Shown: positions 6,046 through 63,787, counted from the stretch's first letter. The stretch is DNA of 64,000 bases from Escherichia coli (GCF_024298765.1 NZ_CP101210.1); one strand, 5' to 3'. Notes: generated by a model from the letters alone, not told the origin. A program made the numbers and translations.

Positions 6046-6147
6046 TGCCTGATGCGCTACGCTTATCAGGCCTACGAGACTCCTGCAATATATTGAATTT
6101 GCATGTTTTTGTAGGCCGGATAAGGCGTTCACGCCGCATCCGGCAAG
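6046..6147. repeat. REP/BIME palindromic elements downstream of gyrB
   Basis: gcctgatgcgctacgcttatcaggcctac and gtaggccggataaggcgttcacgccgcatccggcaag match REP consensus. Confidence 0.6.
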
Positions 6148-16203: not shown

Positions 16204-16306
16204 TTACATCGTAGCCGATGAGGACGCGCCTGATGGGTGTTCTGGCTACCTGACCTGTCCATTGTGGAAGGTCTTAGATTCTCGCTGATTTCAGGAGCTA
16301 TTGATT

Positions 16307-16720
16307 ATGCGTAACTTTGATTTATCCCCGCTTTACCGTTCTGCTATTGGATTTGACCGTTTGTTTAACCACTTAGAAAACAACCAGAGCCAGAGTAATG
16401 GCGGCTACCCTCCGTATAACGTTGAACTGGTAGACGAAAACCATTACCGCATTGCTATCGCTGTGGCTGGTTTTGCTGAGAGCGAACTGGAAATTACCGC
16501 CCAGGATAATCTGCTGGTGGTGAAAGGTGCTCACGCCGACGAACAAAAAGAGCGCACCTATCTGTACCAGGGCATCGCTGAACGCAACTTTGAACGCAAA
16601 TTCCAGTTAGCTGAGAACATTCATGTTCGTGGTGCTAACCTGGTAAATGGTTTGCTGTATATCGATCTCGAACGCGTGATTCCGGAAGCGAAAAAACCGC
16701 GCCGTATCGAAATCAACTAA
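16307..16720 (+). CDS. ibpA: small heat-shock protein IbpA
   Basis: 137 aa starting [20 protein letters not shown]; alpha-crystallin domain. Confidence 0.95.
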
Positions 16721-26513: not shown

Positions 26514-26618
26514 ATATTGGACAAAACGCAAACTGTGATCGATACTCAACTATGCACTAAATACGTCAAAATTCGTGCCGAAATTGCGCGTTCTGCGCGG
26601 AACACGTATACTTTCAGT

Positions 26619-26693
26619 GTTGACATAATACAGTGTGCTTTGCGGTTACCAGCCGCAGGCGACTGACGAAACCTCGCTCCGGCGGGGTTTTTT
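26619..26693 (+). ncRNA. istR: IstR-1 antitoxin sRNA
   Basis: sigma-70 promoter TTGCGC-17nt-TATACT upstream; gttgacataatacagtgtgct complementary to tisAB leader at 26361-26381; terminator hairpin ccucgcuccggcgggg plus U-run. Confidence 0.65.
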
Positions 26694-41845: not shown

Positions 41846-42343
41846 TTATTTAATGTTCAATAACTCTATGGCTTTAGTATATTCATCAGGAATACCAATT
41901 GTAAAACAAGGTGCGGTATCGGTAGGTAGATTTTCTTTGTTATCATCATCCAGAACAGAAATAGAAAATTGTCGTTCAGGTGTTGATGTCGTGGTTATTA
42001 AAATGGTTGGATTAGGAAGAGAAACATATGTTGTATCATTTTTTAGTTTTATTTCTTTGATGTTTTCTTTGTTAATTTTATCAATCGTTTCAATAGAGAA
42101 AAAAGAATCATACCCCATTCGCAGTTCAATTTTATTATCGTTTTCGAATAAATAAATGGCATTATTGTTTTGAAGCAGATTGAATATATTGTTAGCGCAA
42201 GTTTGAGTTGCTAGCCAGGATGCCGCTGGATGACTCAAATTAATATGCGTGCTAAAGACTTTGACGCGACTACTTCTGTTTTTCTCTTTACTTTCAATTA
42301 AATGCCTAGCGCTTTTGGCTGCTTTACAAGTTCCATGCCCCAC
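41846..42343 (-). CDS. hypothetical protein (AT-rich orphan ORF; possible N-terminal membrane anchor)
   Basis: 165-aa ORF from GTG; in-frame upstream codons encode a hydrophobic stretch (IVIIKLIGTIFSVVIGVILIVSIL) with no canonical start before a stop. Confidence 0.35.
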   Translation of the reverse strand: MGHGTCKAAKSARHLIESKEKNRSSRVKVFSTHINLSHPAASWLATQTCANNIFNLLQNNNAIYLFENDNKIELRMGYDSFFSIETIDKINKENIKEIKLKNDTTYVSLPNPTILITTTSTPERQFSISVLDDDNKENLPTDTAPCFTIGIPDEYTKAIELLNIK

Positions 42344-42784
42344 ACGGCAAAAATAATCTCCTGAAAGGATACTTACAATCAGTATTACACCAATGACGAC
42401 AGAAAAAATAGTTCCGATGAGTTTGATGATGACAATCCTTGTGCAGTGTTATTTTCACCATGGATTATAATGTTATAGTGAAATTATTGCGCATGTAATT
42501 TTTCTTTGATTGTTTTAACATCACATTTATGCACTTCTTCATCTTTGTAGCAGGTAAAAGCCATATATGGATGGCTGGTGTCCGGTGCAGATAAAATGCA
42601 ACTTATTCTTGATAGCTTGAAAAAAAGAGAGGTTTTTTTGAGTGACGGTTGATAGTCGGTGGCAAGGAAGACGTTTTCGTACACTCGGCAAGAAAAACGA
42701 ATCACTCTGTCATACTACCAGATACATCAGCAGGGTCAGGTTGCTCAGAAATAAGCAGGATGGGGATCACTGAAGAGGCATTTT

Positions 42785-42804
42785 GGCGATCACAGGAGTC
42801 GAAT
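42785..42804 (-). repeat. selC 3-prime-end-like att remnant (island distal boundary)
   Basis: ggcgatcacaggagtcgaat contains gatcacaggagtcgaa, the reverse complement of the tRNA-Sec 3-prime end ttcgactcctgtgatc (from memory of selC). Confidence 0.5.
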
Positions 42805-42938: not shown

Positions 42939-43781
42939 TTATGAAGGTAACACTCCCGGATAGTGTTTCGCAATAATATCATTCAGCCTGTCAACCAGTT
43001 CTGGTTTCCTGAACCTGATGTGCGCGGAGCCTTTCTTAAAGTATCTGATGCTGAACATCTCATCTTCATAGCATTCTTTACCCTGAACAGACCGGATGTG
43101 ATCATCCAGACGAATAGTGATGTTTTCCCGGTTGTCGGGGATCGGTTTACCGCTGAACAGGTGCAACATTCTTTCCAGATCGGCGAGTCGGTCAGCCTGT
43201 TGCCCGGTGATAAGATGAAATCCCCACCGGTCCCACCTTACCAGGTTGTTAATGATAATTTTACTGCCAAATTTACAGGGGCAATTAGTTTTGTAATTCC
43301 AGCTCAGTCCCCTGAAGACGTTGATCACCCCTCGCTCAAACACTTCATCTTTGTTCTGGTGCAGTTGTTTAAATGTGCTCAGAATGTTCGCTTCGCTGAT
43401 TTCCGGAAAATTATCGTATTCCAGTGACCGGTACCATGTCTCACGGGCCTGCGCATCCATTAATGACAGCATCCCGGAACGTTGCATCAGGTCACGCCAG
43501 ATTTCGCGATCGAGATTGCGGGTGATGGCTTTCATTGCCGTTTCAGGTTTTTCCATCAGCCAGCAACCACAGCGAAAATCCTGTTTCATCGCCCAGTCCA
43601 GTGCGGCTTTACCGTCAATACTTTCTGTCATTGCTGAGATTTCTGCCAGTTGCCGGGTAAGTGTGTCGATTTGCAGCAGCGTACTCTTTCGTACAGCCAG
43701 AATGTGGCGGATACTGGTTGAGCAGATAACGTCCGTATGCCCGTTGACCACTTCCGGACGGGGGGCTGTGATTTCAGACAT
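42939..43781 (-). CDS. hypothetical protein (DUF4942-like, terminal gene of CP4-type islands)
   Basis: 280-aa ORF; last gene of the minus-strand backbone block; family assignment from memory. Confidence 0.55.
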   Translation of the reverse strand: MSEITAPRPEVVNGHTDVICSTSIRHILAVRKSTLLQIDTLTRQLAEISAMTESIDGKAALDWAMKQDFRCGCWLMEKPETAMKAITRNLDREIWRDLMQRSGMLSLMDAQARETWYRSLEYDNFPEISEANILSTFKQLHQNKDEVFERGVINVFRGLSWNYKTNCPCKFGSKIIINNLVRWDRWGFHLITGQQADRLADLERMLHLFSGKPIPDNRENITIRLDDHIRSVQGKECYEDEMFSIRYFKKGSAHIRFRKPELVDRLNDIIAKHYPGVLPS

Positions 43782-43865
43782 AATCGATATTCCTTTTTGC
43801 AGATAAATGAAAACGCCTGCCCTGTTCAGGCTGGCGTCAGTGGAATGAAGTCTGGTGAGTAAGAC

Positions 43866-44288
43866 TCACCGGTTCTGGTACAGAAGCTGCAGTTGGCGCA
43901 GGGTACGGATATCCTCCCTGGCCTGTTCAATACAGGGCAACAGTGCTGCCGAATCCGTTTTGTCCTCATCGTTGTCAAAGATAATTTCCGATTCGCAGTC
44001 AATATTGTCCTGCAGCCACGCAATGAGGATATCCAGCGCTGTTTCAGTGGTTAATGGCATCACGCTCTGTATCACTGTATTGTCTTCCGGCAACTGATGA
44101 GGGCTGGCAGAAGTCGCCGGTGTTTCGGTAGCGTCATGTTCATCCACCACGCGGAGTGAATAACCGTTTTCAGCGACTTTGTTAATCAGTTCAGCGAGCT
44201 TAATACCATCGACGTCAACGACAATGCGCCCCATGTTCAGCGCCTGCGCATTAATGCTGTCGGCTTCCAGCGTCAGGGCCAGTTTCAT
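43866..44288 (-). CDS. YeeW-like protein
   Basis: 140-aa ORF immediately downstream of the CbtA-like toxin, with 4-bp overlap. Confidence 0.55.
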   Translation of the reverse strand: MKLALTLEADSINAQALNMGRIVVDVDGIKLAELINKVAENGYSLRVVDEHDATETPATSASPHQLPEDNTVIQSVMPLTTETALDILIAWLQDNIDCESEIIFDNDEDKTDSAALLPCIEQAREDIRTLRQLQLLYQNR

Positions 44289-44662
44289 TGTTTCGCCCCC
44301 GGATGTTTACCCAGGGTAATGTTATTTACCGTTCTGTAGTTGTCGCGTGTCATCAGGCCGGTTGCCCGGCGTGCCCGGAGGATATCAATACTGTTTATTA
44401 ACTGAGAACGGGTACAGGCGCTGAATCCCGGCTGGTCGGTACGTACCAGCGCGTATTTTTCAACGAGAAAGTTCACCGCATCACACAGTGAAATGCCCGC
44501 TTCAATATGCTGCTCAATCACACGTTCATCAGCGAACGGTGTGTCATTCAGCGCGAGGCCGTAGTGCTGGTCCAGTAACCGGGTGAGCAGTGTCTGCCAG
44601 ATGGTGACGGGAGACGGGCAGCACGATGCCTCCCGTACATGCGTGTCGGGTAATGTTTTCAT
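44285..44662 (-). CDS. cbtA: type IV toxin-antitoxin toxin, CbtA/YkfI/YpjF family
   Basis: 125 aa from MKTLPDTHVREASCCPSPVTIWQTLLTRLLDQHYGL...; strong match to remembered CbtA family sequence. Confidence 0.85.
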   Translation of the reverse strand: MKTLPDTHVREASCCPSPVTIWQTLLTRLLDQHYGLALNDTPFADERVIEQHIEAGISLCDAVNFLVEKYALVRTDQPGFSACTRSQLINSIDILRARRATGLMTRDNYRTVNNITLGKHPGAKQ

Positions 44663-44751: not shown

Positions 44752-45120
44752 TTACTTTTTCGTTTCGGGCGTCGGATAAACAGCCATATAAACGTAGCCA
44801 CAACTGCCGAGGGTGTCGGCTTTGCAGGTCAGACCTTTTGCATACAGCGTGACGGTATGCTGATGGCGGGGATTCAGTTCACCGCTGGTGAGCATGAGTT
44901 CCAGTTGTTTCATCAGCAGCGGAAAGGCCTGGTCCAGGTGGTACGCATCTGCATCGCTGAACAGGCCTCTGATACCGGCGCGGTCGGCAAGGTAATGCAG
45001 GCGGTTACCCTCCTGCACCAGACGTGCCCCGAAACAGGGCGTCACGGTGCAGGGCAGCCCCCACCAGGGGCGGTCGTGATTGTCGTCGGGAAGCATTGTC
45101 CCGGAGAGTGCGTCTGACAC
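44752..45120 (-). CDS. cbeA: type IV toxin-antitoxin antitoxin, CbeA/YafW/YfjZ family
   Basis: 122 aa MSDALSGTMLPDDNHDRPWWGLPCTVTPCFGARLVQEGNRLHYLADRAGIRG...; directly upstream of toxin. Confidence 0.85.
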   Translation of the reverse strand: MSDALSGTMLPDDNHDRPWWGLPCTVTPCFGARLVQEGNRLHYLADRAGIRGLFSDADAYHLDQAFPLLMKQLELMLTSGELNPRHQHTVTLYAKGLTCKADTLGSCGYVYMAVYPTPETKK

Positions 45121-45282: not shown

Positions 45283-45504
45283 TCAGTTCAGGGTGACGCT
45301 CATCAGCCGGACATACGGGCCAAAACTGTCCTTACGACGTTCAGCAAACACGGCCAGCACACCGGGAATATCCTGTACTTCACGACCGGTATACGTCTCA
45401 GCACTGCCGTGCCAGCGGTACTTACCGGTGTAGAACGGAAAAAGACGGGATGCAGGATGTTGTTGGTGAATACGCATGGCTTCACCACGAGTGATAATTT
45501 TCAT
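45283..45504 (-). CDS. DUF987 protein (YeeT/YpjJ-like)
   Basis: 73 aa MKIITRGEAMRIHQQHPASRLFPFYTGKYRWHGSAETYTGREV... Confidence 0.75.
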   Translation of the reverse strand: MKIITRGEAMRIHQQHPASRLFPFYTGKYRWHGSAETYTGREVQDIPGVLAVFAERRKDSFGPYVRLMSVTLN

Positions 45505-45566
45505 AATGGGATACCTCTGAAGACAGAAGATAAAAGTGAAAACAGGTGTGATGTGGTTGTGACGGG

Positions 45567-46043
45567 TTAAAGCAGACCATGTTCGGCAAAGGAGAAAACC
45601 TGGTTGCCACCGACTATCAGATGGTCCGGCACCCGGATATCCACCAGGCCCAGTGCCTGTACCAGACGTTCGGTGATAAGCCGGTCTGCCTTACTGGGTG
45701 TGACTTCACCGGACGGGTGATTGTGCGCCAGCACCACGGCAGCGGCATTGTGGTACAGGGCGCGTTTAATCACTTCCCGGGGATGGACTTCCGTGCGGTT
45801 GATGGTGCCGGTGAAGAGGGTTTCACCGGCAATCAGCTGATTCTGGTTATTCAGATACAGTACCCGGAATTCTTCACGCTCCAGTCCCGCCATGTTCAGA
45901 ATCAGCCATTCCCGTGCCGCACGGGTGGAGGTGAAGGCCACGCCGGGTTCATGAAGATGACGGTCCAGGGTTTTCAGGGCCCGCTGAATAAGGCTGCGCT
46001 CGCCGGGCGTCATCGCTCCGGGCAGAAAGGAAAGCTGTTGCAT
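45567..46043 (-). CDS. RadC-like JAB-domain protein (YeeS/YkfG/YfjY family)
   Basis: 158 aa; JAMM motif HNHPSGEVTPSKAD. Confidence 0.85.
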   Translation of the reverse strand: MQQLSFLPGAMTPGERSLIQRALKTLDRHLHEPGVAFTSTRAAREWLILNMAGLEREEFRVLYLNNQNQLIAGETLFTGTINRTEVHPREVIKRALYHNAAAVVLAHNHPSGEVTPSKADRLITERLVQALGLVDIRVPDHLIVGGNQVFSFAEHGLL

Positions 46044-46054
46044 GGCCTCTCTCC

Positions 46055-46534
46055 TCAGTCAATGATGCGCATAATGGCGCTGCATTCCGGATGCTGCAGG
46101 GCGTAATCCCGCAGCCGGTAATAATGGACCGTCATGGCATAACACTCCGTACGACAGGCGTGATGACTGTACGTCATCAGACAGGCAGCAATGCCGGCGG
46201 CTTCCGGGCTCATTTCAGCGCGGTTACCGTTCATGGCACTGAACAGTACCCATGTTTCGTCATCATCGTCATCCGGTTCGGGTGCCATAAATGCGCCACC
46301 GTTGTTCAGGGTGTACAGATTCCAGATACCCCCGCAGTAGTCTTCACACAGACGGTCCATCCAGCCGAAGATACGGGGCTCCAGGGTCACCCACTGTGGA
46401 ATGAGGCCAAAATGCTGCGGCCAGAAGCTGATGCGCTGTTCATCAGGGACGAGGCTGGCAACCAGCTGAGGCGGATTATTCTCTGGTGTTGTAGCTGAAT
46501 AAATTGTGGGGGTATTCTGAGAAACGGTCTTCAT
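46055..46534 (-). CDS. antirestriction protein (ArdB/KlcA family, YfjX-like)
   Basis: 159 aa; acidic DDDDDE stretch; conserved position upstream of radC-like gene. Confidence 0.8.
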   Translation of the reverse strand: MKTVSQNTPTIYSATTPENNPPQLVASLVPDEQRISFWPQHFGLIPQWVTLEPRIFGWMDRLCEDYCGGIWNLYTLNNGGAFMAPEPDDDDDETWVLFSAMNGNRAEMSPEAAGIAACLMTYSHHACRTECYAMTVHYYRLRDYALQHPECSAIMRIID

Positions 46535-46615
46535 GAGATAACTCCTTAAATAACAAATAAATGTGTGTTTTTCAGGAACGAAAGCTGAATGATTCCCTCA
46601 CTCAGGGAAACGGCA

Positions 46616-47434
46616 TCAGCGCAGGCTCTCCAGCATCGTTTCTGCCATCACCCACAATGCGCGGTTGAGCTTAATGTCGGTATCAATGCTGTGAATGGCC
46701 CGGGTATGGATACGTTTTCCTCTGGCACTGCGCCCGGAAATCCCGCCTTTCAGCATATTCTCCTGGATGGTCTGATAAGCACTCCACAGGTCCTTACCGT
46801 AATCCTCCCGGCGTCGTGGTGTCAGAATGTCGGCGGTGGTGACGGGCTGATGTTCGTCACCATAACGGTAAGTCAGCGCCGCCTGTGCCAGCGCCTGGCG
46901 TGCCGGTGGCGGCAGGACCAGCGACTGCATGGCATCACGCTTCTCCTCTATCCGGTCAAACACGCCCACCACCTCGTAAGCCCCTTCAATGACTCTGTCC
47001 ACCACATTTCCCCGGTGCGGAACACGTACTTCCCCCAGAGACTGACCACAGACGCAGCCGTTCTGGCAGACGAACCTGAAGTACCCCGGCAGCATCTGGT
47101 AGCTGGAGGTACCGTCATGAGAGTTGAGCAGAATAATTTCAGGGACATGTTCTCCGTTTATCTCTCCGGCCCGCCGCAGACGCAGCATGTGTTTTGTGTA
47201 TTCCCGGCGGCTCTGGTCGCGCACACGGGTCTGGCAGGCGAAGAACGGCTGAAAGCCTTCCCGCTGCAGATTTTCCAGGACGGTGATGGTGGGAATGTAC
47301 GCATACCGTTCACTGCGGGAGGTGTGCCGGTCTTCTCCAAAAATACTCGGGACGTGGTACATCAGTTCTTCGCGTGTCAGTGGGCGCTCCCGACGGATCT
47401 GATTTACATGACCAAAACGACTGGCTAATTGCAT
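46616..47434 (-). CDS. DUF932 protein (YafZ/YfjQ-like)
   Basis: 272-aa ORF; conserved backbone position. Confidence 0.75.
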   Translation of the reverse strand: MQLASRFGHVNQIRRERPLTREELMYHVPSIFGEDRHTSRSERYAYIPTITVLENLQREGFQPFFACQTRVRDQSRREYTKHMLRLRRAGEINGEHVPEIILLNSHDGTSSYQMLPGYFRFVCQNGCVCGQSLGEVRVPHRGNVVDRVIEGAYEVVGVFDRIEEKRDAMQSLVLPPPARQALAQAALTYRYGDEHQPVTTADILTPRRREDYGKDLWSAYQTIQENMLKGGISGRSARGKRIHTRAIHSIDTDIKLNRALWVMAETMLESLR

Positions 47435-47472
47435 ACTTTGCTCCTTATGAATGAATTAGCGGTATAAACGAA

Positions 47473-47500
47473 AAGGCCGCGTCTCCCGGAGAAGACGCGG
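47473..47500. other. intercistronic GC-rich stem-loop
   Basis: ggccgcgtct-cccggaga-agacgcggcc: perfect 10-bp stem between the DUF905 and DUF932 genes. Confidence 0.5.
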
Positions 47501-47523
47501 CCTGATGGATGAAATGAAGACGT

Positions 47524-47757
47524 TTATTGCCTGAGAATTCCCTCACTGGCGAGATACGAATTTAGCTGTTTTCCGGCATCAGGTTCAAAATTCCAGCACC
47601 GCCAGCGTAGCTGCCCTTCGGCATTGCGGATAACCAGCCGGAAATGCGTTCCCTGGTCATCCTCAATAAGCACATTGCGGTAAGCTGTTGTGACGGCAAC
47701 CGCCTGTTCGCGTGAGAAAGGGCCTTCGGGCAATAAAACAGGGTGGCAGTCCGACAT
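47524..47757 (-). CDS. DUF905 small protein
   Basis: 77-aa [51 protein letters not shown]... Confidence 0.65.
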
Positions 47758-47762
47758 ACCGG

Positions 47763-48440
47763 CTATTTTCCGATAAATTCAACGCTGGCGCCGGTGGCAT
47801 TACCGTCAGCACCAACCGTGACGGTCACTTTGTCGTACGCACGGTCTTCAGGATTGAATACTTCAAACTCAACCTTATTGCCTTTTACTTCGTAAGAGCC
47901 AAAATCAGCGGTTTCTGTTGTTTCCTCGTCATATTCCCGGGCGTATGCCTGCCGGGCAGCCTGCAGGACGGAATCTTTATTAATAGTGGTCGTCTGTTTC
48001 GGGGAAAAACCGGCAAGTGATGTGACAAATTTCGGACAGACCTTCAGCATATCACCGCGGGTGAATTCCATTCGTACACCAAATGCCTGTAAAACGGACA
48101 CATCACGCTCTGCTATGGAGTGAACGGCTTTTTTGACCATTTCCGGCGCCTGTCCGATTTCCACCTCAACAGCCCTGAATCCCGTCTGCTGATTACACAT
48201 TTGTGATGTGGGGATCAGGTTACCGTTAATACTGATACGGCTGCCCAGGAGCGTCTGTACACCATTCGGGCATCCCTGCATCAGGCCGGTAATACCAATC
48301 GTGCCATTTTTCAGCATTACCAGCGCCTGACCATCTTCCGTCATGGTCTGACACCAGCCGTTTTTGACAGCCCAGTTGCCGGCGGAGGCGGAGAATGATG
48401 CCACAGTGAACAGCAGGGGAAAAAGAGCTCTGGTATTCAT
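47763..48440 (-). CDS. secreted/periplasmic protein of unknown function
   Basis: 225 aa from [20 protein letters not shown] (signal peptide); GAGG Shine-Dalgarno upstream. Confidence 0.55.
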
Positions 48441-48587
48441 GACTGACCTCTGAAATGAACGTACGGTGTTATTGATAATGATGGAAGGTATGCAGTGACT
48501 GTTCAGGGAATGACGTAGCCGTATATTTAGTTTTCTGTTCAACATATTGTCTCCATACCTGTCGGGACGGCTTTGGCAGGCCGGCGA

Positions 48588-49268
48588 TCACAGGTTAAAG
48601 GTGTTGATAAGTTTATGGATGAAAGAGAAATGTGGCAGGGCGGAGATAAAACGCTCTTCAGCGACCAGACTGTGGATGTGGCCTCTCCGTTCAAACCGTT
48701 CTGATGTCAGGCTGACTGATTTGATATCTGCCAGAGGAAAGACCTGCAGTTTTCCCTTCTGTAACGCGATCAGATACCAGCTACCGCTGTAATAAATGAG
48801 CCGGCAGGGCTCCAGTGACGGATACCATCGCTCAGTCATCAGAGAGATGTGGATACACTGTCTTATTGCCAGGATGAGTTGCGAGAAACACTCGGGGAAC
48901 GTTGCAGTGATATCCGGCGCCGGTAGCCAGATAAGGCAGGGAGAGGGCTCCTGGTTGTCGGTAAGACAGGTTATCAGTCGTCCGTTCCGGAGCGGAAGTA
49001 TCCGTGCGATCCCGGTATTCTGTATAAAAGAAAGCATTTCAGGGATCGCACCTGGGCTGCTCTGTCGTCTGAGGCTGTACCTGCCATTTCTGTACTCTAA
49101 ATCCAGGTGAACCAGACGCTGATGAAAATCGCGCTGTAAAGTACGTTCTGTAACGCCAAATTCATCTGACAGTGTTTTTAGTGACAGAGATTCTCCGGCC
49201 ATCAGTCGGCTGATAATGAGTGATAAGCGAACCGCCAGGCGATCATGCCGGGAACGATTATCAGACAT
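48588..49268 (-). CDS. HTH plus WYL-domain transcriptional regulator (YfjR-like)
   Basis: 226 aa; N-terminal DeoR-type HTH (KTLSDEFGVTERTLQRD); C-terminal WYL-like region. Confidence 0.65.
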   Translation of the reverse strand: MSDNRSRHDRLAVRLSLIISRLMAGESLSLKTLSDEFGVTERTLQRDFHQRLVHLDLEYRNGRYSLRRQSSPGAIPEMLSFIQNTGIARILPLRNGRLITCLTDNQEPSPCLIWLPAPDITATFPECFSQLILAIRQCIHISLMTERWYPSLEPCRLIYYSGSWYLIALQKGKLQVFPLADIKSVSLTSERFERRGHIHSLVAEERFISALPHFSFIHKLINTFNL

Positions 49269-49470
49269 AGATGTGCACTCCGTAAGAAAACATCTTTTAT
49301 TTCATGATGTTATTATGCATCATGATGTTGAAAGGATGTGTCGCATCCGGATAATCAGGAATAAAATGCAGCAGAAAAAATATTCTTTTAATTATCTGAT
49401 TTTTAAGCATGATTTCATAAAAAGAAGAATGCTCGTTAATCCAGCGACACATCCTGTCGGCGTGAGTGTG

Positions 49471-50355
49471 TCAGAACAGACGCTCCCACAGTGTGATCAG
49501 CAGGTGGATAATGCGGTCCCGGGCTTTACGCAGAAGCTGTAACATCCAGGCCGGAAAACTGAACCGGGCAACGGCGTCGTCAAAACTTTTCCCGATGGCA
49601 TCACCAAAAGTCTGTTGTGCGTGTTTCCGGGCCTGTTCAGAGCGGTTTTCCCCCCTGATATGTGAATAAACTGCGCTGGTTGCCTGTGGTGGCAGCGCGT
49701 GGATCATCAGTGACACCAGCGCTGGAAGGTTCCAGCCTGCAGGTGCGGCTACAGGGAGTACCGGAAATGATGAAGGGAACAGGGTGGCCACCCGGGCTGT
49801 TACTGTCGCCAGTGAGAGTTCCTGGTGACGGGACGGGCATTTTTCTGTGGCATTCCATTCTTCAGCAGGAAACATGCGATCGGCATGGCTGAGAACAAAC
49901 AGAAAGCGCGAGGGATCTGCGCCCTCATTCAGTAAAAACTGATGCATGGCAATATCGGCAGCATACGCACGTTCATCACTCCGCAGGATCCAGATAATCA
50001 GATCCAGTTCCGGCAGTAACTGACGATAAAGCGCTCGGTATTCCTGATCATGCTGCGGTGTTTCACCAATGCCGGGCAGATCGACCAGCGTCATTCTGCG
50101 TTCACCGAGCTGCAGGGTAAGACGATGAGCCTGGCGGGTGCAGCCGTTCAGGGGATGCGTGGCGCAGATACGGGACTGAAAAATGGCATTACACAGGCTG
50201 CTCTTGCCGGTGCCGGATTTACCCATAATGCCAATCACGGGCTCGTAATGAATAACACCGTGGAGATGTTCAAGGATTTTCTGGCGTATTTCTTCAGGAA
50301 GAAACGTCAGATATGATTTCACTTGCGCGGAGAGGGAAGAATTGCTGAATGGCAT
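49471..50355 (-). CDS. GTPase (YfjP/YkfA/YeeP family)
   Basis: 294 aa; P-loop GKSGTGKSS, DLPG switch, ribosome-associated GTPase-like. Confidence 0.8.
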   Translation of the reverse strand: MPFSNSSLSAQVKSYLTFLPEEIRQKILEHLHGVIHYEPVIGIMGKSGTGKSSLCNAIFQSRICATHPLNGCTRQAHRLTLQLGERRMTLVDLPGIGETPQHDQEYRALYRQLLPELDLIIWILRSDERAYAADIAMHQFLLNEGADPSRFLFVLSHADRMFPAEEWNATEKCPSRHQELSLATVTARVATLFPSSFPVLPVAAPAGWNLPALVSLMIHALPPQATSAVYSHIRGENRSEQARKHAQQTFGDAIGKSFDDAVARFSFPAWMLQLLRKARDRIIHLLITLWERLF

Positions 50356-50455: not shown

Positions 50456-51679
50456 ATGGCTAAAAACAAAGGTATTTGTCGGAATAAAAAATGCAGTAAT
50501 CCTGTTTCAGAATTTGATGAGGCAAATGCCTTAAGGTTATGCGATGATCATTATAAGCTATGGAAGCGAAATAAAGAGAATCGTCGGGTCAGGAATATTT
50601 GTCGTATAATCAGTAAATATGACAAAAGTCTGGACCGGGAGATATTTTATGGAGTAAGAGATGCTGCAAAAAATAAAACGGGAAAGAGAATTATTGAGGA
50701 CGCAAAAATATTACATCAATGCCGTGCCTCAAAGCAAGTAAGAAAAAGTTTTCACAAGGGTGTGCTTCGGTCACGGGAATGGCTTAATACACAGGAGTTA
50801 CTGAGCAGAAAACATATATCTGTTACAGGTGAACTATTTAAATTTTACATAAAAGATATTATCAGATTATATTGCTATAAGTTTCTCTACAGCAGAGAAT
50901 ATCTTAATGAAAACGCATACAAAAAACGATATCAGAGTGATATTCACCCCAGAAAAGTTAATGTTCCGATACTGCAACTTGAAGTTGCATGGATAAATAA
51001 TAATTGCCGTTCAAGTGATTCAAGCACTGATATTATTATCCTTCCGAGGATGATAAGAAGAATGGTTGTATTTAATTATACGAAGATAAATAAACAATTA
51101 GAGAAATTGTTAGGGGGGATAGCACGAAAACAAACCTCAGAAAGGAATAAAGGCGGTCTCTATACCAGAATAAAAAAAGAAAGTGACTTTCTTTCTATGG
51201 ATAGATTTATGGTGGAAATAGAAAATATCATAAGGCCTGAAAGGTTTCCGACATCAATTTATCCAGTCTTTTCACATTCATTTATTGAACGAGAGCTTCC
51301 GCTACTGAATCTTGCTCGATCACAGTATAAAAGAGCAATAAGTAAAAAAGTGGCGAATTCAATTTTTTATACTTTGCAAAAAACTAACGTAGCATTATGG
51401 CTACATCTTGAAATGTTTGCTCTGGTGGCATTCATTAAACTGTATACAGGAAAAGGTTTTGAATTCATAAAAAACATGTGTGCATTTATCGATTATAATA
51501 ATGGGATAATAAAATCCACACATGAAGAACTACTGGGTGAAATTAAGCATAACATTCAGGTTAATTTGAAGGTGAACCCTGATAATTTTCCTGAGCTAAT
51601 AAATATATACAATTCATGTTTTAGTAAAAATATATTTTTATATGATATTAATGATGGTAATTTTAAATGGTGTTCATGA
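50456..51679 (+). CDS. hypothetical protein, Lys-rich with N-terminal Cys/His cluster (candidate novel defense/abortive-infection gene)
   Basis: 407-aa ORF; purine-rich RBS; very AT-rich codon usage; C8-x4-C13...C29-x2-H32; divergent from GTPase gene. Confidence 0.6.
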   Translation: MAKNKGICRNKKCSNPVSEFDEANALRLCDDHYKLWKRNKENRRVRNICRIISKYDKSLDREIFYGVRDAAKNKTGKRIIEDAKILHQCRASKQVRKSFHKGVLRSREWLNTQELLSRKHISVTGELFKFYIKDIIRLYCYKFLYSREYLNENAYKKRYQSDIHPRKVNVPILQLEVAWINNNCRSSDSSTDIIILPRMIRRMVVFNYTKINKQLEKLLGGIARKQTSERNKGGLYTRIKKESDFLSMDRFMVEIENIIRPERFPTSIYPVFSHSFIERELPLLNLARSQYKRAISKKVANSIFYTLQKTNVALWLHLEMFALVAFIKLYTGKGFEFIKNMCAFIDYNNGIIKSTHEELLGEIKHNIQVNLKVNPDNFPELINIYNSCFSKNIFLYDINDGNFKWCS

Positions 51680-52842: not shown

Positions 52843-53373
52843 TTAAGCTACATTGTTGTTATGACTGACAGGATTGTTTTCTTCCCCTGACTCTGGGCTT
52901 AACAGTCCCTGGCGTTGTAGATATTCACTGACTGACATTCCAGAACTACGGATCCTGTCAGAGATTTTACGAAATTGATCCTTCCATTCTGCAGGTAATT
53001 TCTTAATTTGTCTGACTTTACAGGCTACACTGTACGGGGTTCGCCCTAGTTTCTCTGCCAGCCAGAAAAGGTGTTTACCAATTTCATCGTCCGGTACATC
53101 CTCCAGAACATCTCGCAATAAACTCTCGTCTGCCTCATTCCATGCCACACCAGCATTTGGGAAACGAGGATCGATCTCTCTTTCCTTCTTCTCCTTCTTA
53201 CTTTGCTCTTTTCGGGATGATACAGATACGACAGAACGTTCTTTTACCGCTGTAATTGCCATAACTGCATTGAGCAGAGATCTGCGCTCCACATCGTTCA
53301 GCATTTTTCCTTCACAGATCAAATCATTCAGGATGTCAATGACTAGATTCAGACTTTCTTCTGTTAGCTTCAT
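52843..53373 (-). CDS. hypothetical protein with putative HTH
   Basis: 176-aa ORF; AAGG RBS 8 nt upstream; charged KE-rich linker; HTH-like LAEKLGRTPYSVACKVRQIKK. Confidence 0.55.
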   Translation of the reverse strand: MKLTEESLNLVIDILNDLICEGKMLNDVERRSLLNAVMAITAVKERSVVSVSSRKEQSKKEKKEREIDPRFPNAGVAWNEADESLLRDVLEDVPDDEIGKHLFWLAEKLGRTPYSVACKVRQIKKLPAEWKDQFRKISDRIRSSGMSVSEYLQRQGLLSPESGEENNPVSHNNNVA

Positions 53374-54042: not shown

Positions 54043-54774
54043 ATGAATCAACCAATACACAATGATTACTGGTTATCCCGTTTTGAAAGTATTCTCAACA
54101 GTGCCCTGGTGCAACACCGTGCCGTCTCGTTAATCCGGGTGGATTTACGTTTCCCTGAGCATATGCCTGTCACCATCATGGATCCCGATCCGGATTCAGC
54201 GGTGATTTCTCGTTTTTTCGAATCCCTGAAAGCCAAAATTCAGGCTTACCAGCGGAAAAAACGACGTACCAACAAGCGTGTGCGTGCAACCACCCTGCAT
54301 TATTTCTGGTGTCGAGAGTTTGGCAAGGAAAAAGGCAGGAAACATTATCACGTGATATTACTGCTCAACAAAGATACCTGGTGCTCGCCAGGGGATTTCA
54401 CCGTTCCTTCTTCGCTGGCGACGCTGATCCAACTGGCATGGTGTAGCGCTCTGCATCTTGAGCCCTGGCAGGGTAATGGACTGGTTCATTTTTCCAGGCG
54501 GACGCCTTTCCGTAAACCGGCATCATCTGATGCTCGCCCTTCTTCCGATGATACGCCTTTGTCGGGTGGATGTTCTGAAACCAGGAAGGCTTCAGACAAA
54601 AAGCCGGGTGAAGCCGCTGTTCTCTGGATCAAGCGTGGTGATGTGGAAGCGATGCAGAAAGCCATGGAGAGAGCCCGTTATCTCGTGAAGTATGAGACGA
54701 AGCAGCATGACGGTTCTGGTCAACGTAATTATGGTTGCAGCCGTGGAGCGGGGCGTCTACTGGATGGCAGGTGA
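54043..54774 (+). CDS. inovirus Gp2-like replication-associated protein (YagK/YfjJ family)
   Basis: 243 aa; HYHVILLL motif region; family assignment from memory. Confidence 0.65.
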   Translation: MNQPIHNDYWLSRFESILNSALVQHRAVSLIRVDLRFPEHMPVTIMDPDPDSAVISRFFESLKAKIQAYQRKKRRTNKRVRATTLHYFWCREFGKEKGRKHYHVILLLNKDTWCSPGDFTVPSSLATLIQLAWCSALHLEPWQGNGLVHFSRRTPFRKPASSDARPSSDDTPLSGGCSETRKASDKKPGEAAVLWIKRGDVEAMQKAMERARYLVKYETKQHDGSGQRNYGCSRGAGRLLDGR

Positions 54775-59736: not shown

Positions 59737-60063
59737 ATGACTAAAAATACTCGTTTTTCCCCCGAAGTCCGTCAACGGGCAGTTCGTATGGTTCTGGAAA
59801 GTCAGGGCGAATATGACTCACAATGGGCGGCAATTTGTTCCATTGCTCCAAAGACTGGCTGTACGCCGGAGACTCTGCGTGTCTGGGTTCGCCAGTATGA
59901 GCGGGATACCGGGGGCGGAGATGGAGGGCTCACCAGTGCTGAACGTCAGCGTCTGAAAGAGCTGGAACGTGAAAATCGTGAACTGCGCCGCAGCAACAAT
60001 ATCCTTCGCCAGGCTTCCGCTTATTTTGCGAAGGCGGAGTTCGACCGCCTCTGGAAAAAGTGA
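59737..60063 (+). CDS. IS629 OrfA
   Basis: 108 aa [39 protein letters not shown]... Confidence 0.88.
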
Positions 60064-60950
60064 TGGCACTGCTGGATAAGCTGCGTGAGCAGTACGGGGT
60101 CAGACCGGTATGCAGTGAACTGCATATTGCCCCGTCAACGTATTACCACTGTCAGCAACAGCGACATCATCCTGATAAACGCAGTGCACATGCACAGCGC
60201 GATGACTGGCTGAAGAGAGAGATACAGCGCGTATACGATGAAAATCATCAGTGTACCGTGTGCGTAAAGTCTGGCGCCAGTTGTTACGGGAAGGAATCAG
60301 GATGGCCAGATGTACAGTGGTGCGCCTCATGGCGGTTATGGGACTTGCCGGTGTTCTCCGGGGTAAAAAGGTCCGCACTACCGTCAGCCGGAAAACCGTT
60401 GCCGCAGGTGACCGCGTAAACCGTCAGTTCGTGGCAGAACGTCCTGACCAGCTGTGGGTGGCTGATTTTACTTACGTCAGCACATGGCAGGGCTTCGTCT
60501 ATAGTGGCGTTCATCATTGATGTATTTGCCGGATATATCGTGGGGTGGTGGGTCTCATCGTCTATGGAAACGACATTCGTGCTGGATGCGCTGGAGCAGG
60601 CGTTGTGGGCCCGCCGTCCGTCCGGCACCATCCATCACAGCGATAAAGGCTCTCAGTATGTGTCACTGGCCTATATGGAGCGATTAAAAGAAGCAAAACT
60701 GCTGGCATCAACAGGGAGTACAGGCGACTCGTATGACAACGCGATGGCGGAGAGCATCAATGGTCTTTACAAAGCGGAGGTAATACACCGTAAGAGCTGG
60801 AAAAACCGTGCAGAAGTGGAACTGGCCACACTCACGTGGGTGGACTGGTATAACAATCGACGATTGCTGGGAAGGCTGGGCCATACTCCTCCGGCAGAAG
60901 CAGAAAAAGCTTATTATGCTTCCATCGGAAACAATGATCTGGCAGCCTGA
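60060..60950 (+). pseudogene. IS629 OrfB transposase, frameshifted
   Basis: DDE transposase sequence split over three overlapping frames (60060-60419, 60251-60520, 60504-60950). Confidence 0.8.
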
Positions 60951-62085: not shown

Positions 62086-62652
62086 ATGCCTAAATCTTAC
62101 ACACCAAACTGGTTTTTTACCGCTTTACTTGACAATCACATCAATCAAATGATGGCACGCTATTCCTGCCTGCGGGCCTTACGGATGGATTTCTTCTACA
62201 GGAAGGATACGCCTGATTTCTTACAACCTGATCATCGTTGGCTTGAATTACAACTGCGTATGCTGCTGGAGCAGGTTGAACAGTTTGAAAATATGGTTGG
62301 CTTCTTCTGGGTGATTGAATGGACGGTTGATCATGGTTTTCATGCGCATGTGGTCTTCTGGCTCGATCGTCAGAGGGTTAAAAAAATATATCCCTTTGCG
62401 GAGCGGATTACGGAATGCTGGCGGTCTATTACGCATAACAGCGGTTCGGCACACCGCTGTACATATCAGCCGCATTATACATACAACATCAACATTCCTG
62501 TGCGCCACAACGATCCTGAAAGCATCGATAATATTCGCGGTGCCCTGCATTATCTGGCAAAAGAAGAGCAAAAAGACGGGCTGTGTGCCTACGGCTGCAA
62601 TGAAGTTCCTGAACGTCCTGCTGCAGGGCGTCCTCGTAAGCCTCACTTCTGA
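62086..62652 (+). CDS. inovirus Gp2-like protein (YagK/YfjJ family paralogue)
   Basis: 188 aa; FHAHVVFWLDRQ motif region analogous to HYHVILLLNKD of the 54043 gene. Confidence 0.6.
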   Translation: MPKSYTPNWFFTALLDNHINQMMARYSCLRALRMDFFYRKDTPDFLQPDHRWLELQLRMLLEQVEQFENMVGFFWVIEWTVDHGFHAHVVFWLDRQRVKKIYPFAERITECWRSITHNSGSAHRCTYQPHYTYNINIPVRHNDPESIDNIRGALHYLAKEEQKDGLCAYGCNEVPERPAAGRPRKPHF

Positions 62653-63550: not shown

Positions 63551-63787
63551 ATGTTGACCTCAATGACAGGTCACGACAGCGTATTGCTGCGTGCCGACGA
63601 TCCCCTGATCGACATGAACTACATCACCAGCTTCACTGGTATGACCGACAAATGGTTTTACAAGCTGATCAGTGAAGGCCATTTCCCTAAACCCATCAAA
63701 CTGGGGCGCAGCAGCCGCTGGTACAAAAGTGAAGTGGAGCAGTGGATGCAGCATCGAATCGAGGCATCACGAGGGGCAGCAGCATGA
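63551..63787 (+). CDS. AlpA-family prophage regulatory protein (excisionase-like HTH)
   Basis: 78 aa; ...ITSFTGMTDKWFYKLISEGHFPKPIKLGRSSRWYKSEVEQWM resembles AlpA/Xis-type HTH. Confidence 0.7.
   Translation: MLTSMTGHDSVLLRADDPLIDMNYITSFTGMTDKWFYKLISEGHFPKPIKLGRSSRWYKSEVEQWMQHRIEASRGAAA

Follow-up and report, generated by a model that had tools for sequence, protein, structure and literature searches.

The DNA considered here is a stretch of 64,000 nucleotides (nt) of an Escherichia coli chromosome, hereafter the window, and our subject is a block of genes within it at positions 45283-50355, together with a stem-loop that lies between two of these genes. Several complete E. coli chromosomes (e.g., NZ_CP058874.1) begin with 64 kb identical to the window, and the coordinates used here apply to them unchanged. 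A first-pass annotation had described the block as a complete backbone of the type found in CP4-57, one of the CP4 elements of E. coli K-12, and had proposed that the stem-loop is an mRNA processing or stability element.

Gene content and extent of the block

ORF calling gave eight consecutive minus-strand open reading frames (ORFs) within 45283-50355, with limits exactly where the first-pass annotation had placed them. All eight are intact coding sequences in the RefSeq annotation of NZ_CP058874.1, as had been claimed. The genes are listed here in the direction of transcription, with the terminator that we predict between the fourth and the fifth:

49471-50355, minus strand: small GTPase, YeeP/YfjP/YkfA-like, 294 amino acids (aa), first gene of the block (Pfam MMR_HSR1, E 6.5e-15)
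48588-49268, minus strand: helix-turn-helix (HTH) plus WYL transcriptional regulator, YfjR-like, 226 aa (Pfam WYL, E 5e-5, above the cut-off)
47763-48440, minus strand: 225-aa protein with an N-terminal signal-like peptide, in the variable 'small exported protein' slot
47524-47757, minus strand: DUF905 protein, YkfF-like, 77 aa (Pfam DUF905, E 1e-31)
47464-47503, minus strand: predicted Rho-independent terminator, with a 13-bp stem at 47503-47474, a UCCG loop and the tail UUUCGUUUAU at 47473-47464
46616-47434, minus strand: DUF932 protein, YfjQ/YafZ-like, 272 aa, first gene of the invariant part (Pfam DUF932, E 6.6e-51)
46055-46534, minus strand: ArdB/KlcA-type antirestriction protein, 159 aa (Pfam Antirestrict, E 5.3e-37)
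45567-46043, minus strand: RadC-like JAB metalloprotein, YeeS/LfgB-like, 158 aa (Pfam RadC, E 7.3e-45)
45283-45504, minus strand: DUF987 protein, YeeT-like, 73 aa (Pfam DUF987, E 3.4e-38)

The family assignments were put to hidden Markov model (HMM) searches, and they held above the Pfam gathering scores for seven of the genes, namely those for the MMR_HSR1 GTPase, WYL, DUF905, DUF932, Antirestrict, RadC-JAB and DUF987 proteins. The remaining product, previously called a secreted protein, has no family, and that label follows from the N-terminal signal peptide at the annotated start (48440) and from nothing else. Purifying selection is measurable on the block genes: in pairwise comparisons with the copies in five other loci, the ratio of nonsynonymous to synonymous substitution rates (dN/dS) was 0.05-0.34 for every gene, and this supports the suggestion that the element is still under selection.

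Of 5426 complete E. coli genomes, 4879 (~90%) have matches to the 5-kb block, at a median of three places per genome, and at least 80% of the block is collinear in 1788 of the matching genomes. A check for its absence from other tRNA-associated islands found the block present there, so its identity as a module stands. The module comprises 12 genes and continues to 42939, and 45283-50355 covers its upstream two-thirds. Because this range stops in the middle of the module it is not a complete backbone, and it also contains no integrase, alpA, yfjI or yfjJ-type genes. The rest of the module, and the repeat that lies beyond it, are as follows:

44752-45120, minus strand: CbeA antitoxin, continuing the module beyond the block (Pfam CbeA_antitoxin, E 4.5e-54)
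44285-44662, minus strand: CbtA toxin, the type IV toxin-antitoxin partner of CbeA (Pfam CbtA_toxin, E 8.2e-63)
43866-44288, minus strand: in-frame fusion ORF of a DUF5983 N-terminal domain and DUF957, 140 aa (Pfam DUF5983_N, E 2.8e-28)
42939-43781, minus strand: DUF4942 protein, 280 aa, last gene of the module (Pfam DUF4942, E 1.1e-69)
42784-42803, no strand assigned: distal direct repeat of the 3' end of selC, GGCGATCACAGGAGTCGAA, island boundary (match to the tRNA-Sec 3' end)

The distal gene set of GTPase, DUF932, antirestriction, RadC, DUF987 and CbeA/CbtA genes is complete here, with all of its members above the Pfam gathering scores. Just outside the block the module is not wholly intact because DUF5983 is shortened at 43866-44288. 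RefSeq annotates this fusion ORF as a truncated DUF5983 pseudogene and a DUF957 gene, whereas in other loci DUF5983 and DUF957 are two separate full-length genes. DUF4942 occupies the terminal position in other loci as well.

The module consists of a variable part (GTPase, WYL, small exported protein and DUF905 genes) and an invariant part that starts at DUF932 and is made up of DUF932, ArdB, RadC-JAB, DUF987, CbeA/CbtA, DUF5983, DUF957 and DUF4942. The order from DUF905 to DUF4942, which is the usual one outside K-12, recurs in six other E. coli loci and in Edwardsiella, Citrobacter, Enterobacter, Salmonella and Trabulsiella, with DUF905 and DUF957 being optional.

A conserved hairpin between DUF905 and DUF932

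A perfect 10-bp inverted repeat, with arms at 47475-47484 and 47493-47502, lies between the DUF905 and DUF932 genes. The GC stem-loop of the first-pass annotation is thus real and correctly assigned to this gap, with the coordinates given for it (47473-47500) off by 2 nt. The full stem begins 20 nt past the stop codon of DUF905, and 39 nt separate its end from the ATG of DUF932. Nine of its 13 pairs are G-C, the loop is a UNCG-type tetraloop, and the T-rich tail is found on the coding strand alone, there being no T-run after the hairpin on the plus strand. The RNA hairpin folds at -27.2 kcal/mol (z = -6.5), none of 200 shuffled sequences folded as well, and the hairpin was the top terminator-like site in a scan of the region. 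Other inverted repeats with arms of at least 14 nt are absent from 41.6-51.8 kb, and a search of the whole window at Rfam gathering thresholds placed no RNA family on the hairpin or close to it.

The hairpin is conserved in structure and position. Each of the 17 chromosomal loci compared, yfjP-yfjQ and ykfA-yafZ of K-12 included, has a G+C-rich hairpin that lies 23-49 nt before the start codon of DUF932, and a U-run directly follows the stem in 15 of the 17. It is kept whichever gene stands upstream. The stem sequences are unrelated between lineages, and the loops are often UUCG or UCCG. RNAalifold applied to 11 sequences predicted 13 pairs, nine of which have compensatory double changes. Copies of the 161-nt junction as a whole number 12131, spread over 4382 E. 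coli genomes.

Weaker sites that combine a hairpin with a T-run occur on the minus strand at 43815-43831, in the DUF957-DUF4942 gap, and at 46585-46605, in the DUF932-ArdB gap. Both fold weakly (z = -1.0 for 46605-46585 and z = -3.3 for 43831-43815), and we do not put them forward as terminators. The ykfF-yafX junction of K-12 likewise has a hairpin and a T-run, and terminator-like hairpins may be general at the junctions of the module.

The block and the selC island

There is no tRNA gene within the window, and the tRNA of the island was therefore sought in the matching public chromosome. In NZ_CP058874.1, tRNA-Sec is located at 133367-133461, beyond the window, and adjoins a tyrosine recombinase gene at 131883-133067. 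The selC repeat at 42784-42803 has a 16-bp exact match, extending to ~21 bp with a 3-nt indel. It lies 136 bp past the DUF4942 stop codon, and the core gene yicL is to its left. The end of the module at DUF4942, the selC repeat, yicL, and the distant tRNA-Sec with its integrase together place the block in a selC island of ~91 kb, at the end distal to the integrase, and the island boundary on this side is accordingly pinned to the repeat. The island thus has an integrase beside a tRNA gene, a direct repeat of the tRNA 3' end and the conserved distal gene set, as do tRNA-associated islands of the P4-integrase type, whose integrase-distal end is marked by the block.

The cargo of the island includes ireA, fec, pgt, hlyE, autotransporter genes, and many insertion sequence (IS) elements and pseudogenes. 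AlpA and YagK/YfjJ homologues are found 4-13 kb from the block, with IS elements and ireA in between, while the integrase is ~82 kb away. These homologues are plus-strand genes of the YagK/YfjJ family ('inovirus Gp2') at 54043-54774 and 62086-62652 and of the AlpA family at 63551-63787. They have no integrase nearby and lie among copies of IS2, IS256 and IS3 and ireA. The arrangement suggests that the selC island is composite and grew by accretion of several CP4-like elements.

Interpretation of the module and its probable terminator

We consider it likely that the region is the conserved integrase-distal end module of the selC island, represented in the block by its upstream two-thirds, with the stem-loop acting as a Rho-independent terminator where the variable and invariant parts meet. 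The terminator at 47503-47474, with its U-rich tail, would stop transcripts arriving from the variable part, and its hairpin would protect the 3' ends of these transcripts. Expression of the genes from DUF932 to the toxin-antitoxin pair would then be insulated from the variable upstream genes, and the invariant genes may depend on residual read-through or weak internal promoters for their expression. We infer such insulation, combined with read-through or weak internal promoters, because a simple scan found no sigma-70-like promoter between the terminator and DUF932. The DUF932 ATG is preceded by an AAGGAG ribosome-binding site, and as the ribosome-binding site of this next gene lies within ~30 nt, some read-through is probably needed for downstream expression. 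The tail of the terminator contains a -10-like TATACC, which was rejected as a possible DUF932 promoter, since it has no acceptable -35 or extended -10 and fails the same scan.

The gene content of the invariant part suggests what the module may do. By its sequence, the protein encoded at 46055-46534 belongs to the ArdB/KlcA family. KlcA is a characterised inhibitor of type I restriction (PMC6174562, citing Serfiotis-Mitsa et al. 2010). The DUF932 protein is 62.6% identical to the product of a gene in the leading region of plasmid R100, where this gene comes after psiB, psiA, hok and a hypothetical gene, and before a gene for an SLT-domain transglycosylase (on the opposite strand) and traM. 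At least 5000 plasmids have a match to DUF932, 4430 of them being conjugative, and 3117 of the 4146 plasmid matches of ArdB/KlcA-type genes are on conjugative replicons. By analogy, the invariant part may help newly acquired DNA to become established, with ArdB countering type I restriction and DUF932 being shared with IncF leading regions, and the CbtA/CbeA pair, judged by its family, may stabilise the island. The antirestriction and toxin-antitoxin genes, together with the R100 and other plasmid matches of DUF932, thus suggest an establishment or maintenance module with plasmid-related genes rather than a prophage remnant.

Several observations weigh against this interpretation. The U-tract is interrupted after four U residues (UUUUCGUUUAU), and an efficient terminator would, as no sigma-70-like promoter was found after it, leave downstream transcription unaccounted for. 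Tables of K-12 Term-seq data (PMC7815308) have no entries for yfjP, yfjQ, ykfA, yafZ, ykfF or yafX, and in lacking entries at the homologous junctions they speak neither for nor against termination. The role in establishment or anti-defence is an argument by analogy, and the plasmid DUF932 gene of R100 has no canonical terminator upstream. The RefSeq annotation of the window and island includes no oriT, relaxosome genes or ssb/psiB, although no dedicated search for oriT or a relaxase was run, and no transfer genes such as traM were annotated or identified in the window. Finally, in E. coli Nissle cured of its plasmids, fluC (Ag43) and 'yfjQ' were two of only four up-regulated genes (PMC11056357). 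The quantitative PCR primers for the Nissle 'yfjQ' match DUF932 of the type found in the window, and the fluC and 'yfjQ' primer pairs both fit a locus of another strain with the order Ag43, hairpin, DUF932; the text and supplements of PMC11056357 contain no statement that fluC and 'yfjQ' adjoin. The co-induction hints at substantial read-through, with adjacency in Nissle being unproven.

An alternative explanation for the hairpin, which we regard as unlikely, is that it is mainly an mRNA processing or stability element, serving as a 5' stabiliser of a cleaved DUF932 transcript or as an RNase entry or blocking site without stopping the polymerase. The short and regular distance between hairpin and DUF932 start codon (39 nt here and within the 23-49 nt range in every chromosomal locus) would suit such an element, as would the failure of the simple scan to find a separate DUF932 promoter, and the co-induction of fluC and DUF932 in Nissle points to a polycistronic mRNA that spans such a junction. 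A pure processing site nevertheless leaves the conserved U-tract unexplained: U-rich sequence immediately after a G+C-rich stem whose loop is short, often UNCG, is needed by a terminator and not by a stability hairpin. Together with the covariation of the stem, the U-run in 15 of 17 loci favours an intrinsic (Rho-independent) terminator, as predicted from sequence, over the processing element that was first proposed. The part of that proposal that concerns stability may still apply in a secondary role, as a terminator hairpin stabilises the upstream mRNA as well, and protection of the 3' end of that mRNA would not conflict with termination.

It is less likely still that the hairpin is a regulated attenuator, such that DUF932, ArdB, RadC and the toxin-antitoxin genes are reached only when termination is suppressed, for example by an antiterminator encoded in the island. 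It is true that every chromosomal lineage examined has a terminator immediately before the invariant block and no recognisable promoter downstream of that terminator, and the AlpA homologue at 63551-63787 in the same island is a conceivable candidate for the antiterminator. An AlpA homologue in Pseudomonas is a processive antiterminator. No alternative antiterminator structure stands out in a 136-nt fold, however, no leader peptide or riboswitch was found there, Rfam has no match at the site, and constitutive partial read-through explains the same facts more simply. Equally doubtful is the related idea of a conditional gate, in which the invariant genes would be turned on only through suppression by an AlpA-family or WYL protein or through a burst of transcription from upstream cargo that is phase-variable (e.g., Ag43). 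If true, such a gate would couple expression of the antirestriction and toxin-antitoxin genes to activation or transfer of the island.

That the block is a decaying remnant of a true CP4-57-type prophage, kept by chance and not by selection, is very improbable: K-12 annotation does call the related elements 'cryptic prophage', several of the genes match PHROG families and the surrounding island is full of IS elements and pseudogenes, but the annotation of the whole island has no capsid, tail, terminase or lysis genes, the only families that a PHROGs scan assigns to the module are 'unknown', antirestriction and 'DNA repair', the phage matches of DUF932 are confined to 27 records, all from jumbo phages and at most 41% identical, against its thousands of plasmid matches, and all eight genes are intact, under the selection described above, in a block that most complete E. 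coli genomes carry, often in several copies. The prophage label was thus not upheld, as there are no phage structural genes and DUF932 matches far more plasmids than phages.

The genes of the block already have names, and a few have been characterised (ArdB, CbtA/CbeA and LfgB). Within the block, conservation is highest for DUF932, and the AF2 model of its product (pLDDT 93.6) has no significant fold match in the PDB. As a highly conserved protein that is shared with IncF plasmids and has no solved structural relative, it is a reasonable target for work on the establishment of acquired DNA.

Individual genes and neighbouring features

Among the genes of the variable part, the GTPase shares no more than 33-35% identity with YfjP, YkfA and YeeP of K-12 (tblastn) and for this reason falls in a distinct subfamily. 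Its C-terminal 100 residues have a weak PADLOC match to LeoBC (E 1.6e-7), which in the Eleos defence system is a dynamin-like component. An AT-rich gap of 202 bp separates the GTPase gene from the WYL gene and contains one further feature:

49391-49418, minus strand: sigma-70-like promoter candidate upstream of the WYL gene (ATGAAA-16-GATAAT, 9/12 consensus matches)

Judging from its match to the consensus, this site may function as a promoter. The WYL regulator has an HTH_11 match just under the Pfam cut-off (E 6.7e-5) and a PADLOC WYL match (E 2.6e-18); it is 43% identical to YfjR of K-12 and, over its N-terminal 62 aa, matches the ykfK pseudogene remnant with 66% identity. The 225-aa protein has no family or match in Pfam, NCBIfam, PHROGs, PADLOC or the PDB sequences, and tblastn found no homologue in CP4-57, CP4-6 or CP4-44. 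RefSeq places its start at 48440, and an alternative ORF of 260 aa from 48545 would put 35 residues before the signal peptide. In other islands the same slot holds YfjS_YafY, YfjT or IrmA proteins. The DUF905 protein matches the structure of YkfF (PDB 2HJJ, E 1.7e-28) and is 65% identical to K-12 YkfF.

In the invariant part, DUF932 is 73% identical to both YfjQ and YafZ (tblastn). The antirestriction protein has a near-identical sequence in PDB 2WJ9 (E 7e-101) and a relative in KlcA (PDB 2KMG, E 1e-20), and it is 67-70% identical to its K-12 counterparts. The homologous K-12 genes yfjX-yfjY-ypjJ-yfjZ-ypjF have been treated as one operon (PMC10846083).

Three other ORFs flank or neighbour the module. 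One of 407 aa (50456-51679, plus strand) is divergent from the GTPase gene in a low-GC stretch (~31-41% GC); it is a hypothetical gene in RefSeq and has no match in Pfam, PHROGs or PADLOC. Another of 176 aa (52843-53373, minus strand) belongs to no family, and its sole match, over residues 132-157, is a sub-threshold one to NikA-like mobilisation proteins (E 0.011). A hypothetical ORF of 165 aa (41846-42343, minus strand, 36% GC) lies between yicL and the selC repeat, hence outside the island, and its only match is a sub-threshold patatin-like one (E 0.013). The other Rfam matches of the window, at 511-591 (AsdA, antisense to dnaA), 6068-6110 (ES036), 16241-16313 (ROSE_2, a thermometer), 26564-26693 (istR) and 60018-60134 (ALIL, a pseudoknot of an IS3 element), are ordinary for the origin-proximal region of E. 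coli.

Comparison with known systems

The synteny of the block with the K-12 elements CP4-57, CP4-6 and CP4-44 was examined by tblastn with the window proteins. Like CP4-57 (yfjP to ypjF) and CP4-6 (ykfA to ykfI), the module has the same families on a single strand, from antirestriction to toxin included, and GC hairpins followed by T-runs are found upstream of yfjQ, yafZ and yafX in those elements. The claim that the block follows the K-12 gene order was therefore correct as to kinship. It does not extend to the position of DUF932, which comes directly after the GTPase in CP4-57 and CP4-6, whereas here it stands after DUF905 and before ArdB. Identities to the two elements are only 33-82% (35-78% to CP4-57 alone), and the 225-aa exported protein has no K-12 counterpart. 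The WYL regulator of CP4-6 is a pseudogene remnant and the DUF905 gene of CP4-57 is a pseudogene, and unlike the module described here, CP4-57 has yfjU (arsenate-reductase-like), a yfjV pseudogene and yfjW in between.

The label CP4-57 also fails on sequence similarity, because the genes from RadC to CbtA are closest to CP4-44. The RadC, DUF987, CbeA and CbtA proteins have 99, 96, 93 and 89% amino-acid identity to YeeS, YeeT, CbeA and CbtA of CP4-44, respectively, compared with 60-82% to the CP4-57 and CP4-6 versions (60-78% to those of CP4-57). CP4-44 (yeeP, flu, yeeR, yeeS, yeeT, cbeA, cbtA, yeeW) shares the order and orientation of the genes from RadC to CbtA and likewise has a GTPase gene first. 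It differs in having Ag43 and YeeR between the GTPase and RadC, in that its yeeP is a pseudogene, and in lacking WYL, DUF905, DUF932 and ArdB genes.

The invariant part resembles the IncF leading region, as represented by R100, in the DUF932 gene, which in the plasmid is near psiB, psiA and hok and close to traM, and in ArdB/KlcA genes being common on conjugative plasmids. The ArdB of the window is nevertheless only 27-37% identical to most plasmid versions, and R100 differs in the region upstream of DUF932, as noted above. Compared with Rho-independent terminators in general, the hairpin at the junction has the expected G+C-rich 13-bp stem, tetraloop, U-rich tail, location just past a stop codon and covariation, and departs from them in its broken U-tract.

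The module also resembles the canonical island end module of other E. coli, Salmonella, Citrobacter, Enterobacter and Edwardsiella, in which DUF905, DUF932, antirestriction, RadC, DUF987, CbeA, CbtA, DUF5983, DUF957 and DUF4942 have an order and orientation identical to those found here, with a terminator hairpin at the same position. The differences are in DUF5983, which is shortened and fused here, and in the upstream cargo, which is WYL and the 225-aa protein here and Ag43, IrmA, YfjS/YfjT or patatin/RdcB elsewhere. The module and its terminator are ordinary and already known in kind, and it is useful for annotation that a covarying terminator divides variable cargo from an invariant block starting at DUF932.

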